From an uncultured Candidatus Saccharibacteria bacterium (GTDB lineage: Bacteria > Patescibacteriota > Minisyncoccia > UBA6257 > 2-01-FULL-56-20), in assembly GCA_964374065.1 (NCBI GenBank), contig CAYJWW010000002.1, forward strand, positions 4,153 through 68,152: a DNA stretch of 64,000 bases, written 5' to 3'. The notes beneath the pieces were generated by a model. It did not search any database and was not told the DNA's origin. It worked only from the letters and a program-made list of their open reading frames with translations. This document shows positions 14,584 through 52,252 of the stretch, piece after piece; position 1 is the first letter of the stretch; each line of letters begins with the position of its first letter. The position numbers and the translations under genes were made by a program.

Positions 14584-14994
14584 TCAAATATTCTTCTCTT
14601 TCGTGAAAAAAATAGGCTGCCATTGGAGTGACTGTGCATAAACCGGGAAATACTTAACTGGTATCCGGGGCAACTCGATTGTTTTACTCTTGTTGGGAGT
14701 TAACCCGAGTCGCTTCAAGTCGGCAAAGATTGTCTTACTCCCGACTTGCAAACGATACGCTGATTTCCAACTCTTACTATTCCTTCTCTTAGTAGCTATC
14801 TTGTGATTAGAACCAAGCGCGATTCTAATCTTCTCCAATAAATCTCCGTCAGTAATCTGAAATTCGATACAGTGTGCTCCCCTTTTATTTCTAGTCATAT
14901 TTCCATCCGCAGTAAAGAAACCTAACACGTACGCCATTTCTGGTGACCACTTTTTGAAAAAGTTCTCGTTTTTGGTTCGGTAAATTGGCATCAC
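14584..14994 (-). CDS. free-standing LAGLIDADG homing endonuclease (single-motif, I-CreI-like)
   Basis: Motif [11 protein letters not shown] within a 136-aa ORF. Local GC is much lower (~40%) than the flanks. Its ATG overlaps the ligA stop codon (ATGA). Confidence 0.7.
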
Positions 14995-17051
14995 GAAATC
15001 ATCCTCAAAAACTCTTTTTCGTCCAGAACCGACACGCCGAGTTTCTTCGCCTTCTCATATTTTGATCCCGGCTCGGAGCCGGCCACTACATAGGATGTTT
15101 TCTTGCTCACCGACTCGGAGACGTCCCCGCCCAGCGCGCGGATATTCGCTTTCGCCTCATCGCGGCTCATGGATTCCAGGCTGCCGGTCAATACGAAGGT
15201 TTTCCCCGCCAACGCATCGCCCTCGGTTTGCCGTTTTTCCTTTGTGATCCGTACCCCGGCTTTCTCAAGTTTCTCAAGTAGTTTTGCATTCCGCGGCTCA
15301 CGGAACCAGTCGTGGATGCTCTGCGCCACCTTCGGGCCGATATCCGGAATACGCTCTAGGTTTTCAAGCGACAGCGCATGGAACGCTCTTAAAACATCCG
15401 TAGGCGTGGAGATCGCGCCGCGAATTTCGCGCGCGAGCACGAGTGCTGTTTCTTCTCCTACGTGCAGGATGCCTAGGGCAAAGAGGAATCGCGGGATCGA
15501 AATGGATTTCTTGCGCTCCGCTTCTTTCACGATGTGCTCCGCGGACTTCTCCCCGAAACGGGGCAGCGCCGAGATGTCTCCTTTTTCAAGCGTGAAGATA
15601 TCCGCCGCGTCCGTGATAAAGCCTTCGTCCATGAAACGGTCGATGATCTTCGGCCCGAGGCCGCGAATGTCGAAAGCGCCGCGAGAGACGAAATGGTAGA
15701 GCGCTTCCCGATTCCGCGCGCCGCATTTCGGGTTCGAACAGCGATACGCCACGCCGTCGCGGACAACCGTTGCCCCGTCAACGGGACACTTCGCGGGCAT
15801 GCGGAATACGCGCTCTTTCCCCGCCCGGAGCTCGGCGAGGACCCTGGTCACCTGCGGGATCACGTCGCCCGCGCGGCTCACGATCACGGTGTCTCCGATT
15901 TTGAGCCCCAACCGTTCGATCTCGTCCGCATTGTGGAGCGTCGCGTGCGTCACGGTTACCCCTCCGACCTGCACCGGATCCATGACGGCAACCGGCGTAA
16001 GCACCCCCGTCCTCCCGACCTGCACTCTGATTTCCCTCACGATCGTAGTCGCTTCTTTAGGCGAGAACTTGTACGCGATCGCCGCCCGCGGCGCTTTACC
16101 GACCACGCCTGCGCGCTCCATAATCTCGTTCTCGTTTACGGAAACCACGATTCCGTCGATCTCGTATCCGAGTTTCTCGCGCTTCTTCGCCACTCCCGCG
16201 TGAAATGCGCATATCTCTTCGAGAGAACGGACGACGCGGCCATTGGAGTTCGTTTTGATGCCGAACCGGTTCAGCGCGTCGTACTCGCGCGCATGCGTAG
16301 GATAGTTCTCCCAATGCGTTTTTCCCGTTCCCCATACGCTGTATGCGTAGAAGTCGAGCCCGCGGCCGGCAGTGACCTTCGGATCCAGCTGGCGGATCGA
16401 CCCGGCGGCAACGTTCCGAGGGTTGGCGTATAATTTCCCGCCGATCTTTTTCTGGCCGCGGTTGATGCGCTCAAATTCTTTTTTTGTGAGGAACGCCTCG
16501 CCGCGAACGATAAGTTCCCTGGGGATATGCCCCTCCGCCGTCCTAAGCCTCAACGGGATTGCCTCGACGGTTCTTAAGTTCTCCGTAACATCCTCGCCCG
16601 TTATCCCGTCTCCTCGCGTAAGTCCTTGCACAAAAAGCCCGTCGCGATACACAAGTTCCACCGCCAGCCCGTCCATTTTTACATCGCAGTAAAAAGAAAG
16701 TTTTTGGGCGGTGATTCCTTGATTCTTTAAATGCGTCCGCAGCCGCTCGAACCACGCCGCTACGTCTTCTTTTGAGAAGGCGTCGTTCAAGGAAATCATC
16801 CGCCCGCGGCCTTCGCGCTCGCGGTTCACCTTTCGGAATGCCTTTTGGGGCTTGCCGCCCACGCGCTGGGTGGGCGAATCGGGAGTCACAAGATCGGGGA
16901 ACCGCGCTTCGAGATCGAAGAGTTCCTTCTTCAAAGAATCGAGCGCGGCCTCCGAAATTTCCTGCGTATCGAGTACATGATAGAGATACCGATGATGATT
17001 GATTGCCTTACGAAGGTGCGCGATCCGTTCTTTTGCGTGCTCCTTCGTCAT
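14991..17051 (-). CDS. ligA: NAD-dependent DNA ligase
   Basis: Adenylation motif [11 protein letters not shown] fold, Zn-finger Cys cluster, HhH repeats and a C-terminal BRCT domain. Start chosen at [14 protein letters not shown] (17051), which overlaps the stop of the upstream ORF by ATGA. Confidence 0.9.
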
Positions 17052-17470
17052 GGGGACGATTGTAAGTTCAGTTCGAACGCGCGCTGCACGTTTGCCGCAG
17101 CTCCCACCGATCGAATAAGTTTGGTGTTGAAATCTCTGCAGTCGTTCGTCGGAGTGCACGCGATCGTGAACGACCCTCCGTTCGACATGGGCATCGCGGG
17201 CTGGGGATGGGAGGACCCGGGGTTAAAATATTGGAAAAGCCCCCACTCTACGCCGGCATCCGCCGCATAGATCGCCTTTCCCGAATTCCCGATATCCGTT
17301 GCCTGTCGGATCTGGTAGACCATAAGGAGCCCCGCGATGGTTGTGGCGCCTAATATCGTCCCGCCGATGGCGAGAACCGTAAGGATCATCACCTGGCCGC
17401 ACCGCGCCCGTCGGCGCGCAGAAAATGGAAAATAGAAAGTAAAAAGTAGAAGACGGCGCGTTTGTTTCAT
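17048..17470 (-). CDS. membrane protein with a pilin-like basic leader (MKQTRR...[16 protein letters not shown]) that shares its 5' module with the 23659-24198 gene
   Basis: 141-aa ORF. Its N-terminal ~25 codons and ~60 nt of upstream sequence are about 90% identical at nucleotide level to the corresponding region of 23659..24198. There is a TM helix after the G-Q junction but no Glu at +5. Confidence 0.45.
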
Positions 17471-17519
17471 TGCAGTTTGGATTTTATCTCTAATTCTGGA
17501 TTCCATTTTCTAGATTCTA
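17396..17519. repeat. conserved ~125-nt 5' module, copy 1 (5'UTR plus first ~25 codons of the pilin-like gene)
   Basis: cgcgcccgtcggcgcgcagaaaatggaaaatagaaag...cggcgcgtttgtttcattgcagtttggattttatctctaattctggattcc..., about 90% identical to copy 2. Confidence 0.85.
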
Positions 17520-18035
17520 TGTATCGAGCGTCCTCGGACTCACAGTAGTCTGTAGGTGAATAACGCTCTCGTCAACGCCGCGCTCTCGCGCGCTCACGCC
17601 CAAATTTATGACGATCCGCGGCTGCACGTTATCCCCGACCGCATTGCCGATCGGCCGGAAGGTCAGATAGCGGATATTCACGTTGTCGGCCGTGATCCGC
17701 GCGAAGGCGCCTCCTCCAACCCGCCGCTCGATCCCTCCGTCGGATACCCCGCCTCCTTTCCTGTATGTAACGACTTCACCTGCGGCATTTTTGAACGCAA
17801 GCTCATTTGAGGTGCACGTCTGACCGTTCACGCAGAAGTCAAACCCGGTCCGGACCTCCCGATTCATCTGCTCGAGCGCCAAGCTCATATTGCTGTTCGC
17901 GGAAAGGAGCGCTGAATTCTGGCGTTGCGTTTTAAGCGCGTTCACGAATCCGCCGACCGCGATCGTCACGCCAACCGAAAAAAGCGCGATCGCGACGAGC
18001 AATTCCACGAGCGTAAAGCCGCGGCGGCGTTCCAT
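17517..18035 (-). CDS. type IV pilin-like protein (minor pilin or pseudopilin)
   Basis: Class III signal MERRRG|FTLVELLVAIALFSV with cleavage Gly, Phe+1 and Glu+5; 172 aa. Confidence 0.75.
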   Translation of the reverse strand: MERRRGFTLVELLVAIALFSVGVTIAVGGFVNALKTQRQNSALLSANSNMSLALEQMNREVRTGFDFCVNGQTCTSNELAFKNAAGEVVTYRKGGGVSDGGIERRVGGGAFARITADNVNIRYLTFRPIGNAVGDNVQPRIVINLGVSARERGVDESVIHLQTTVSPRTLDT

Positions 18036-51274: not shown

Positions 51275-51361
51275 AACCCGCGCCGGTTGACGTCCTGTAT
51301 TGATATCTTATAGTAAAAACTGAGAATAGGGCGGGGTATCGCCTTTTCCGTTACCTAAGAC

Positions 51362-51667
51362 ATGACCGATTACAGAAAAATCGCGACCGACGCGCGCCGG
51401 AAGGTGATCGAGATGATCTACCGGGCGCAATCAAGCCATGTAGGATCAAATCTATCGGCAATAGACATCCTTACCGTTTTATTCGAAAAAATGGACGTGA
51501 AGAAGGATAAGTTCATCGCAAGCAAGGGGTGGGTGGCCGCTTCTCTTTATTATTTTTTATGGAGAAGGGGAAGTATTACAGAAGAGGAATTGAATAGCTA
51601 TTGTCAACAAATTGAGTGTCCTGAATGCAATGGGACAGGGATTGCCAATGGAGTAAATAAAAAGTAA
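51362..51667 (+). CDS. transketolase N-terminal subunit, 5' fragment (gene interrupted by an HNH endonuclease insertion)
   Basis: AQSSHVGSNLSAIDILTVLF matches the TPP-binding N-terminal region of transketolase. The ORF ends in a Cys-rich tail ECPECNGTGIANGVNKK and TAA, in frame with the following HNH ORF. Low-GC region. Confidence 0.55.
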   Translation: MTDYRKIATDARRKVIEMIYRAQSSHVGSNLSAIDILTVLFEKMDVKKDKFIASKGWVAASLYYFLWRRGSITEEELNSYCQQIECPECNGTGIANGVNKK

Positions 51668-51676
51668 CATGAATAT

Positions 51677-52252
51677 GTGTATAAGATTTGCAAAACTTGT
51701 AAAAGAAAGTTCATTCCAAAAGACGATAGACCAACAAGGCCAGCTAAATTTTGTTCCCGAAAATGTATTCGTAACAAAACGCAATTTAAAAAGGGGCATA
51801 CAATTCGTCTTGGATTAAGACCACCGAAATATGCTTGGGACAACGACAATTCTAAAAAGACGAGATTTAAAAAGGGGCATACTTTCGGTTTTAGAAAAGG
51901 TCATGTCTCTTGGAATAAAAATAAAGATTTTGGAAGCATCGAACATCTTGCGAAACGAATTTCATGGTTAACCCTTTACCGAAAATGGAGGTTGGCAGTT
52001 AAACGAAGAGATGGCTTTAAATGCATTCAATGTAACAGCAGAAAAAAATTAAACGTTGACCATTATCCGACTTCATTGGCTCAGCTCGTAAAAGAGTACA
52101 AAATAGAATCACCGCAAGAAAGTAAGAAAATTAAGAAATTCTGGGACACTAAAAATGGGCGAACGCTTTGTATATCATGTCATAAACAAACACTAAATTA
52201 TGGAAGAAACTTCGTGCAAAAAATGCAACGGGACCGGCAGGATTTGGAGTAA
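51677..52252 (+). CDS. HNH homing endonuclease
   Basis: HNH motif (LNVDHYP ... NGRTLCISCH) with CxxC zinc knuckles. GC is about 30%. GTG start in the same frame as the upstream transketolase fragment. Confidence 0.7.
   Translation: MYKICKTCKRKFIPKDDRPTRPAKFCSRKCIRNKTQFKKGHTIRLGLRPPKYAWDNDNSKKTRFKKGHTFGFRKGHVSWNKNKDFGSIEHLAKRISWLTLYRKWRLAVKRRDGFKCIQCNSRKKLNVDHYPTSLAQLVKEYKIESPQESKKIKKFWDTKNGRTLCISCHKQTLNYGRNFVQKMQRDRQDLE

Follow-up and report, generated by a model that had tools for sequence, protein, structure and literature searches.

Fractured genes are loci in which a split intein has a free-standing homing endonuclease gene between its two parts (Dassa et al. 2009, PMC2677866). HNH endonuclease genes can also split their hosts with no splicing element, as mobE does in nrdA of phage Aeh1 and mobA in gene 39/60 of phage T4, and how the halves of endonuclease-split genes reassemble has been called an open question (PMC2988022). 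Here we describe an HNH endonuclease gene that interrupts the gene for a transketolase N-subunit in a 64-kb stretch of contig CAYJWW010000002.1 (the window, meaning the whole stretch of DNA analysed), together with its flanks, which give each of the two host fragments one zinc knuckle of the form CxxCxGxG. To our knowledge, the split intein of fractured genes is the only dedicated reassembly device known so far. The cassette made up of the HNH gene and its flanks suggests a much smaller, splicing-free device, namely a zinc site borne by the element and shared by the fragments. These flanks are the most interesting feature of the window, and they were missed in a preliminary description of the same DNA.

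The cassette spans positions 51611–52253, and the HNH gene splits the N-subunit gene, whose intact homologues encode 257–263 amino acids (aa), into two open reading frames (ORFs) at 51362–51667 and 52200–52763 (Table 1). Fragment 1 (101 aa) runs from host sequence ending ...NSYCQQ into the tail IECPECNGTGIANGVNKK and a stop codon; the 18-aa tail is not present in insert-free homologues and contains knuckle 1, CPECNGTG. The GTG start of the HNH gene follows 9 nucleotides (nt) after that stop. The start of fragment 2 (187 aa) overlaps the 3' end of the HNH gene in a different frame; the fragment reads MEETSCKKCNGTGRIWSK before host sequence resumes with FIGLTEP. It begins MEETSCKKCNGTG, with an ATG that the HNH gene contributes through its conserved Tyr-Gly codons (TATGG). 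The layout is therefore a linker, CxxCxGTG, about eight codons and a stop, then a 9-nt spacer, the HNH ORF, and finally an ATG within the HNH Tyr-Gly codons, CKKCNGTG and about five codons, so that the element supplies both the stop codon of fragment 1 and the start codon of fragment 2. In cassette-free type-I and type-II transketolase alleles, the putative target region of the HNH enzyme lies around ...SYCQPGSKFIGL....

The overlap at the right end has a peculiarity in the window, where the HNH ORF is eight codons longer than in relatives (52228–52252). The Cys-Asn codons of knuckle 2 are TGC AAC here and TGT AAT elsewhere, a difference that removes the HNH-frame TAA stop of the other loci and that illustrates, on a small scale, the dual-coding constraint. 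The transketolase-like enzyme encoded at 51362–53265 is itself minimal, with a PP subunit of about 250 aa, a 165-aa Pyr subunit and no usual C-terminal transketolase domain. This minimal pair is conserved beside DegT aminotransferase and sugar epimerase/dehydratase genes in many loci of the Candidate Phyla Radiation (CPR).

Three other arrangements were considered for the locus and rejected. A group I or group II intron around the HNH ORF has no Rfam ribozyme match, and within 51200–52900 no intron or other RNA family is reported at E ≤ 1. A split intein is not compatible with tails of 13–23 aa that lack intein blocks, a His-Asn pair and a junction nucleophile and that match zinc-finger families only in Pfam. 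An in-frame insertion of an HNH domain was rejected as well, since the frame of fragment 2 always differs from the HNH frame and the stops are conserved.

As judged from its layout, the cassette works like a fractured gene, yet it stands outside that family as defined, having no split intein. In both, the upstream part owes its stop codon and the downstream part its Met to the element, the endonuclease ORF runs into the downstream one, and short element-derived peptide extensions remain on both host halves. These extensions are split-intein halves in fractured genes, whereas here they are CxxCxGxG knuckles of 13–23 aa, so there is no protein splicing; the host there is a phage replication gene and here a cellular CPR enzyme of a sugar cluster; and the window endonuclease is HNH, whereas in roughly half of the fractured-gene loci the endonuclease belongs to a newly predicted Vsr-like family (PMC2677866). 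With mobE and mobA the cassette shares a free-standing HNH gene inside a conserved enzyme gene, two polypeptides that must reassemble, and relatives of the same endonuclease in intergenic positions beside the target. No dedicated assembly motif is reported for those genes (PMC2988022), whereas here a conserved half zinc site on each half travels with the endonuclease.

The motif has a precedent in RNase E, in which each protomer carries one CPxCxGxG motif and a single shared zinc ion holds the oligomer together (PMC2631609). This Zn-link is a case of two polypeptides with two cysteines each and one zinc ion, and knuckle 1 of the window is literally an instance of its motif. It is a homodimer contact of an intact protein, whereas the proposed clasp of the cassette would be heterodimeric, would join the two parts of a single fold and would be encoded by a mobile element. 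In DnaJ and anti-TRAP, two CxxCxGxG motifs form one Cys4 zinc centre, and two motifs per Zn are likewise predicted for the cassette. We found no endonuclease cassette flanked by zinc knuckles in the literature, although coverage was incomplete and this absence is weak evidence.

The 191-aa ORF at the centre of the cassette has no Pfam match at E ≤ 0.01 and, in a profile search, no sequence match in PDB. It is assigned to the HNH endonucleases because it matches HNH PHROGs (best E = 1.9e-8), its remote homologues carry PF01844 and PF07460 (NUMOD3), and residues C116, C119, D128-H129, N160, C165, C168 and H169 (CxxC...DH...N...CxxCH) are invariant in 19 sequences. The structural prediction is compatible with this assignment, with a predicted local distance difference test score (pLDDT) above 90 in the core and, as the top Foldseek match, the HNH endonuclease of phage GVE2 (5h0m; probability 0.99, E = 0.087). 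The protein consists of an N-terminal CxxC...CxxC ribbon, NUMOD3-like KKGH repeats and an HNH core at about residues 100–175, and its catalytic residues are intact.

The same three-ORF anatomy occurs at seven independent loci (the window, L003/L007, L006, L008, L009, L011 and L012), with CxxCxG[TS]G ending fragment 1 and CKKCNGTG opening fragment 2. Five of the insertions lie at site A, directly after ...SYCQx. The other two (L003/L007 and L011) lie at site B, after ...YIGLAE, about eight residues downstream of site A and in a different transketolase lineage; the two sites have the same 8-codon tail, TAA stop and 9-nt spacer. Empty alleles are common, as 114 of the 120 listed transketolase homologues have no Cys motif and 29 insert-free homologues were aligned. 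Knuckles flank all seven intragenic insertions and none of eight related HNH insertions that are intergenic and adjacent to transketolase genes (Fisher's exact P = 1.6e-4). They are absent from the HNH genes upstream of intact transketolase genes (L005, L049, L058, L059, L067 and a second HNH gene in L008, 2030–2455) and from those between the N and Pyr subunit genes (L013, 2130–4020; L022, 2102–4068; L077, 381–2547), and 69 more distant HNH loci without a transketolase nearby (among L010–L090) have no knuckle flanks either. The device thus appears to be restricted to gene-splitting insertions.

Around the transketolase gene pair, related HNH genes are found in four or more positions, among them the junction of the N- and Pyr-subunit genes and sites directly upstream of the N-subunit gene, and L008 carries two such genes. 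This raises the question of whether endonuclease insertions may have helped to separate transketolase into two subunit genes.

Phylogeny and the composition of the window gene both bear on mobility. In neighbour-joining trees of modest support, the knuckle-associated HNH genes form one clade (bootstrap 60), sister to the clade of intergenic, transketolase-associated genes, and the site-B genes are nested among site-A genes of the window type (bootstrap 76). The zinc-bearing transketolases are scattered over the transketolase tree, with which the HNH tree conflicts. The window HNH protein is 63% identical both to that of L003 (site B) and to that of L006 (site A). The host parts are much less similar to site B: the transketolase fragment shares 50% identity with L003 and 61% with L006, and the Pyr subunit 45% and 66%. 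At diagnostic residues the window gene is a mosaic that reads six of type I, six of type II, the cassette, four of type II and seven of type I (runs test, P(runs ≤ 3) = 2e-5), with a type-II tract extending about 22 codons to the left and 13–54 codons to the right of the cassette. A mosaic centred on the cassette in this way points to double-strand-break repair with co-conversion of the adjoining sequence, in which the cassette and its knuckles were copied from a type-II donor. As in other homing genes, presence and absence are polymorphic at a defined site and the element has passed between lineages. The alleles compared here show the mobility of the HNH cassette to be real and, as far as their sequences can tell, fairly recent, and the cassette, knuckles included, is probably the mobile unit.

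Several observations indicate that the split gene is maintained. In the pairs L006–L008 and L003–L011, the two transketolase fragments have a ratio of nonsynonymous to synonymous substitution rates (dN/dS) of about 0.06 and the HNH gene one of 0.1–0.18, values that indicate purifying selection. Five loci allow both fragments to be read and a further two (L009 and L012) the downstream one, and all of these frames are open despite protein divergence of 40–50%. The Pyr-subunit gene is kept in every locus long enough to show it, and the fragments keep the invariant transketolase residues. In the knuckles, which are readable in six loci for knuckle 1 and seven for knuckle 2, Cys, Gly and Thr are invariant while their codons vary synonymously (TGT/TGC, GGN, ACN) and the residues at the x positions differ. 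Selection therefore appears to maintain the split enzyme, the endonuclease and the knuckles alike, and we consider it likely that the split transketolase is functional.

Together the two knuckles provide four putative Cys ligands. When joined, they match Pfam DnaJ_CXXCXGXG (E of about 1e-5), Anti-TRAP and the RNase E Zn-link region (7e-4). Five of the 120 transketolase homologues (P0033, P0063, P0103, P0112 and P0113) carry both knuckles contiguously at site A with no HNH gene, in loops of 6–25 residues, and the inter-knuckle loop of P0112 reads ...NKKM..C, much as the window has ...NKK before the stop of fragment 1 and M..C at the start of fragment 2. No HNH gene lies near two of these contiguous-knuckle loci. 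AlphaFold2 models the joined fragments with a pLDDT of 92.9 overall and about 78 in the insert, pairs strands 83–85 and 115–117 so that the insert forms a beta-ribbon, and yields a PP-domain fold closest to the split-gene transketolase 6yak.

Two further loci are of note. In L100, which has a contiguous zinc-ribbon transketolase, an unannotated 81-aa Cys-containing ORF (1177–1422) lies between the N- and Pyr-subunit genes and is not HNH-like. A scan of viral contigs for knuckle-2 DNA returned no cassette and only generic CxxCxGxG proteins (DnaJ, small zinc proteins and a methyltransferase insert). The last of these is a DNA methyltransferase-like ORF on the IMG/VR contig L097 (4678–5352) with the two-knuckle insert ICKKCNGTGKI...ECPRCDGLGEK, whose first knuckle has exactly the sequence of cassette knuckle 2; pairs of CxxCxGxG motifs thus occur as small inserts in other enzymes.

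We propose the following cycle for the cassette. The HNH enzyme would cut cassette-free transketolase alleles, and repair would then transfer the cassette, together with short flanking stretches, to the broken copy. A single message would serve for translation of all three ORFs, and the two knuckles, with two Cys on each polypeptide, would bind one Zn2+, as in the RNase E Zn-link or in a centre of the DnaJ/anti-TRAP type. This centre would clamp the halves of the transketolase PP domain non-covalently, so that the host could bear the insertion with neither RNA nor protein being spliced. Were the HNH ORF lost later, the enzyme would keep a mini zinc ribbon in frame. We lean slightly towards zinc-mediated reassembly as the role of the knuckles.

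Several points weigh against this account. The knuckles score below the gathering thresholds of the families they resemble (19–26 bits against 32.7 for DnaJ_CXXCXGXG, 25 against 32 for Anti-TRAP), as is expected of only half of a four-motif domain. The AlphaFold2 model is of a covalently joined chain and is therefore silent on the association of separate chains. The contiguous zinc-ribbon transketolases could be ancestral rather than scars, and part of the divergence behind the dN/dS values could predate the insertion if homing was recent. The HNH clade that backs a single origin has a bootstrap of only 60% in a neighbour-joining tree, and the cassette has so far been seen in one host gene family, at seven loci. 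By analogy with phage Aeh1 NrdA, in which a split enzyme reassembles by native interfaces alone (PMC2988022), the knuckles may also be dispensable.

The ancestral possibility can be put more fully: the mini zinc ribbon would be an older, native insertion of transketolase, the HNH gene would have invaded its loop, and the knuckles would be host sequence. We regard this as unlikely, though the contiguous transketolases without an HNH gene, two of them with none nearby, fit it, and so does the frequency with which CxxCxGxG pairs serve as small insert modules, the phage methyltransferase of L097 among them. The published fractured-gene model has the same order of events, free-standing endonucleases being thought to invade contiguous inteins and so to make split ones (PMC2677866). 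What speaks for a travelling cassette instead is that the same knuckle–HNH–knuckle anatomy recurs at a second site in another transketolase lineage, with its HNH genes nested among the site-A genes, that knuckle 2 has its start codon and opening codons within the HNH ORF itself, that the zinc-bearing transketolases are polyphyletic on the transketolase tree, and that the type-I transketolase of the window gained its knuckles together with type-II flanks. Even if the ribbon were older, the knuckles may still aid the reassociation of the halves, and the idea of a clasp would survive. A different role for the knuckles is improbable, whether in docking or regulation of the HNH protein, as a DNA recognition or immunity sequence, or as an RNA signal for translational coupling. 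Such a role would draw on the Cys4 ribbon that the HNH protein has at its own N-terminus, on the overlap of knuckle 2 with the HNH 3' end, by which its conservation is partly a shared constraint, and on the imperfect direct repeat of about 20 nt formed by the knuckle DNAs. Knuckle 1, however, is free of overlap with any further ORF, and its C-x-x-C-x-G-T-G persists although codons and x positions vary; the contiguous transketolases have both knuckles and no HNH gene; and intergenic copies of the same HNH clade, equally in need of regulation, have none.

It is very improbable that the insertion simply killed the transketolase and left pseudogene pieces with Cys motifs of no role. Fragment 1 does fall just below the Pfam cut-off (21.5 against 22 bits), and an accessory polysaccharide cluster might tolerate the loss, but frames that stay open across 40–50% protein divergence, a dN/dS near 0.06 for each fragment, the retained invariant residues and Pyr partner, and knuckle residues conserved through synonymous changes all argue otherwise. 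We give still less credence to a covalent rejoining of the halves, be it by a self-splicing intron, protein trans-splicing or ribosomal bypassing of the HNH ORF, even though the closest known arrangements do rejoin, through split inteins (PMC2677866) or the hop of T4 mobA/gene 60 (PMC2988022), and though fragment 1 and the HNH ORF share one reading frame in the window and short similar stretches (TGCAAYGGGACNGG) flank the HNH ORF. Rfam finds no intron at the permissive threshold given above, and the tails are far too short for a Hint fold and have none of the intein residues. Fragment 2 always has its own conserved ATG, and the gap to be bypassed is 530–830 nt as against 50 nt in T4. The knuckles, moreover, are conserved as peptide, as expected if they remain in the product. 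With these alternatives weighed, the explanation we favour, with moderate confidence, is that the three selfish endonuclease elements of the window are unrelated and have reached different points of the homing cycle, and that one of them, the HNH cassette, carries a zinc clasp.

More tentatively, a homing cassette that carries its own clasp might be a third way to live inside a protein-coding gene, beside intron and intein splicing. If that is true, selfish elements have a wider repertoire of ways to neutralise their own cost, such cassettes are a source of zinc-ribbon insertions in enzymes, and some of the enigmatic mini zinc-ribbon inserts in enzymes could be scars of endonuclease invasions. 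The knuckles would also constitute a natural, metal-switchable pair of tags of about 15 residues for split-protein reassembly or protein-fragment complementation. For annotation, the consequence is that a CPR transketolase N-subunit present as three small ORFs would pass for absent or broken.

The other two elements are a free-standing LAGLIDADG gene next to ligA and a LAGLIDADG intein in a UDP-sugar dehydrogenase, and both are ordinary. The preliminary description had placed and named all three elements correctly, as Pfam, PHROGs, the intein residues and the HNH residues bear out, and we hold these identifications with high confidence. It was also right that each is of low guanine-plus-cytosine (GC) content, at 0.407 for the LAGLIDADG ORF, 0.46 for the intein and 0.361 for the HNH gene, in a window of 0.566. 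Its warning that such interruptions affect the annotation of host genes applies to the transketolase N-subunit, which is called as three ORFs, two of them with no Pfam match. Two of its statements do not hold: the LAGLIDADG gene is neither embedded in nor fused to ligA, and the hosts of the intein and of the HNH cassette, taken for essential or core genes, belong to a polysaccharide-biosynthesis cluster and not to core metabolism. Its proposal of active homing traffic stands for the HNH cassette, on the mosaic, the two sites and the conflict between trees, and fails for the LAGLIDADG gene, which is dead, and for the intein, which is ancient. Of 120 homologues from several phyla, 113 have an intein at this very site, a pattern that the preliminary description had itself named as the mark of an ancient insertion. 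A mobile cassette, an ancient intein and a dead LAGLIDADG gene point to different stages of the homing cycle and not to one burst of traffic.

The ORF beside ligA matches Pfam LAGLIDADG_3 over positions 2–72 of 82 (E = 2.8e-7) and PHROG 4645, annotated as endonuclease (5e-27), and retains the first LAGLIDADG motif (VLGFFTADG, residues 22–30) with its alpha-beta-beta-alpha-beta-beta-alpha core. With a cut-off of E ≤ 1e-3, an exhaustive HMMER search collects a family of 5,431 proteins around it, and with E ≤ 1e-10 one of 629. Full-length members are free-standing endonucleases of about 225 aa with two LAGLIDADG domains, and residues 2–119 of the window ORF align to their residues 1–118 with 50–61% identity. 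The sequence departs from the family after ...IPVKYF, exactly where the relatives have F-x-RGYFDGDG, and a stop follows 17 codons on. The second motif and domain, needed for a monomeric enzyme, are thus missing, although a 10-aa C-terminal-like peptide is still readable in the +1 frame. A tRNA-Asp gene starts 37 nt downstream and leaves no room for a second endonuclease domain. The divergence at the second motif, the early stop and the nearby tRNA gene indicate that the gene is half deleted, and on these alignments the ORF is the decayed N-terminal half of a two-domain LAGLIDADG enzyme. Its ATG (14991) shares one base with the stop codon of ligA, and LigA is complete through its BRCT domain; this one-base overlap with a complete protein makes the relic a neighbour of ligA. 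Homing endonucleases are frequent in CPR rRNA genes (PMC11270868), and the likeness to the window extends to a lineage rich in such genes. The enzymes of those rRNA insertions are mostly genuine single-domain homodimers, whereas the window copy is a broken two-domain gene and lies by ligA and tRNA-Asp.

The intein, which is intact, lies in a 933-aa ORF (41268–44069, plus strand) in which Pfam recognises three UDPG_MGDP_dh domains, Intein_splicing and LAGLIDADG_3. Its GC content of 0.46 compares with 0.57 in both exteins. The splicing residues are present (Cys1 at C270 in CLEKHQ, block B as VTDEHP, the terminal ...AIHN773 and the +1 residue C774), and the intein would remove itself by protein splicing. 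The dehydrogenase has its catalytic Cys at +1 (CIPLDP), and the exteins join to GVGGH-CIPLDP, the catalytic-Cys motif of that family. The two LAGLIDADG motifs, LLGYYLSEG and VLAGILRGDG, keep both acidic residues (LSEG and RGDG), which is consistent with an active endonuclease.

UDP-glucose dehydrogenase is a listed intein host, with the allele named UDP-GD in intein compilations (PMC2874743). The inteins of that allele share with the window intein the site before the catalytic Cys (GGH, then C...HN, then CIPxD), a LAGLIDADG domain and a length of about 480–530 aa; the window intein is not notably different; it is a new member, found in a CPR-like genome, and shares 45% identity with the nearest intein. 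Among the 120 best homologues, the 113 that carry an intein at the identical site have inteins of 476–534 aa, span Omnitrophota, Dictyoglomus and Chloroflexota, and include several labelled by JGI as 'dehydrogenase/intein/homing endonuclease'. The comparison of intein and extein identities gives no sign of recent horizontal transfer, since the nearest relative shares 64% identity in the exteins and only 45% in the intein. By its distribution, the intein is an old, widely shared and already known allele, and it looks vertically inherited.

Table 1. Coordinates of the three endonuclease elements, their hosts and adjoining features in the window
Feature	Position	Strand	Support or remarks
Truncated free-standing LAGLIDADG endonuclease gene	14584..14991	-	First domain intact, second motif and domain lost
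tRNA-Asp(GTC)	14472..14546	-	ARAGORN; Rfam tRNA 63 bits
LigA, NAD-dependent DNA ligase	14991..17159	-	Pfam DNA_ligase_aden, OB, HHH, BRCT 4-78/78
N-extein of UDP-sugar (UDP-ManNAc type) dehydrogenase, ends ...GPGVGGH	41268..42074	+	Pfam UDPG_MGDP_dh_N and central domain
Intein, 504 aa, LAGLIDADG endonuclease domain	42075..43586	+	aa 270-773; Pfam Intein_splicing, LAGLIDADG_3
C-extein of dehydrogenase	43587..44069	+	Pfam UDPG_MGDP_dh_C
Transketolase N-subunit fragment 1, host part, 83 aa, ends ...NSYCQQ	51362..51610	+	Transketolase_N 5-90; alignment
Cassette left end: 18-aa tail IECPECNGTGIANGVNKK (zinc knuckle 1, CPxCxGxG) and TAA	51611..51667	+	
HNH homing endonuclease gene, 191 aa, GTG start	51677..52252	+	
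Cassette right end, start of fragment 2, MEETSCKKCNGTGRIWSK (zinc knuckle 2)	52200..52253	+	
Fragment 2, host part (FIGLTEPVHP... onward), GDG/thiamine diphosphate (ThDP)-binding region	52254..52763	+	Transketolase_N 146-270
Transketolase Pyr-domain subunit, 165 aa, partner of N-subunit	52768..53265	+	Pfam Transket_pyr
Approximate co-conversion tract (putative)	51545..52361	+	Type-II sequence within type-I backbone

A regular-expression scan of the window in six frames found no LAGLIDADG, HNH or GIY-YIG motifs beyond the three elements, and no endonuclease was found in about 6 kb of flanking sequence beyond the window (Logan contigs). The best transketolase homologues come from Colwell-, Jorgensen-, Wildermuth- and Roizmanbacteria, and the relatives of the HNH cassette from metagenome-assembled genomes of Staskawiczbacteria, Parcubacteria and Wildermuthbacteria. 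This range of relatives suggests a genome of the CPR/Patescibacteria type, in keeping with the reference to CPR in the preliminary description. The intein host and the split transketolase lie in one polysaccharide cluster of about 18 kb, together with a flippase, glycosyltransferases, DegT aminotransferases and Bac_transf. Clusters of this type are prone to exchange. Low GC is a property of the transketolase gene pair throughout (0.39–0.45, versus 0.55–0.58 in the neighbouring genes) and not of the HNH gene alone.

At the Rfam gathering score, the window contains no intron, and its only RNAs are four tRNAs. ARAGORN lists a fifth, a second tRNA-Met, which belongs to a divergent pair of tRNA-Met(CAT) genes about 100 nt apart (6216–6289, minus strand, and 6385–6457, plus strand). 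Both are called by ARAGORN, and Rfam at the gathering score reports the minus-strand copy only.

Upstream of ligA on the minus strand, two paralogues of 430 and 510 aa (18072–19372 and 20841–22375) have no Pfam match and share a stretch that is 98–100% identical, at a spacing of 2,769 nt. Both contain long arrays of 18-nt tandem repeats, rich in Tyr, Gly and Gln when read on the coding strand, and both show strong GC skew. A type IV pilin-like gene with an N_methyl motif (17517–18035, minus strand) adjoins them, and from their sequences these genes look like a recently duplicated pilus or surface-protein module.

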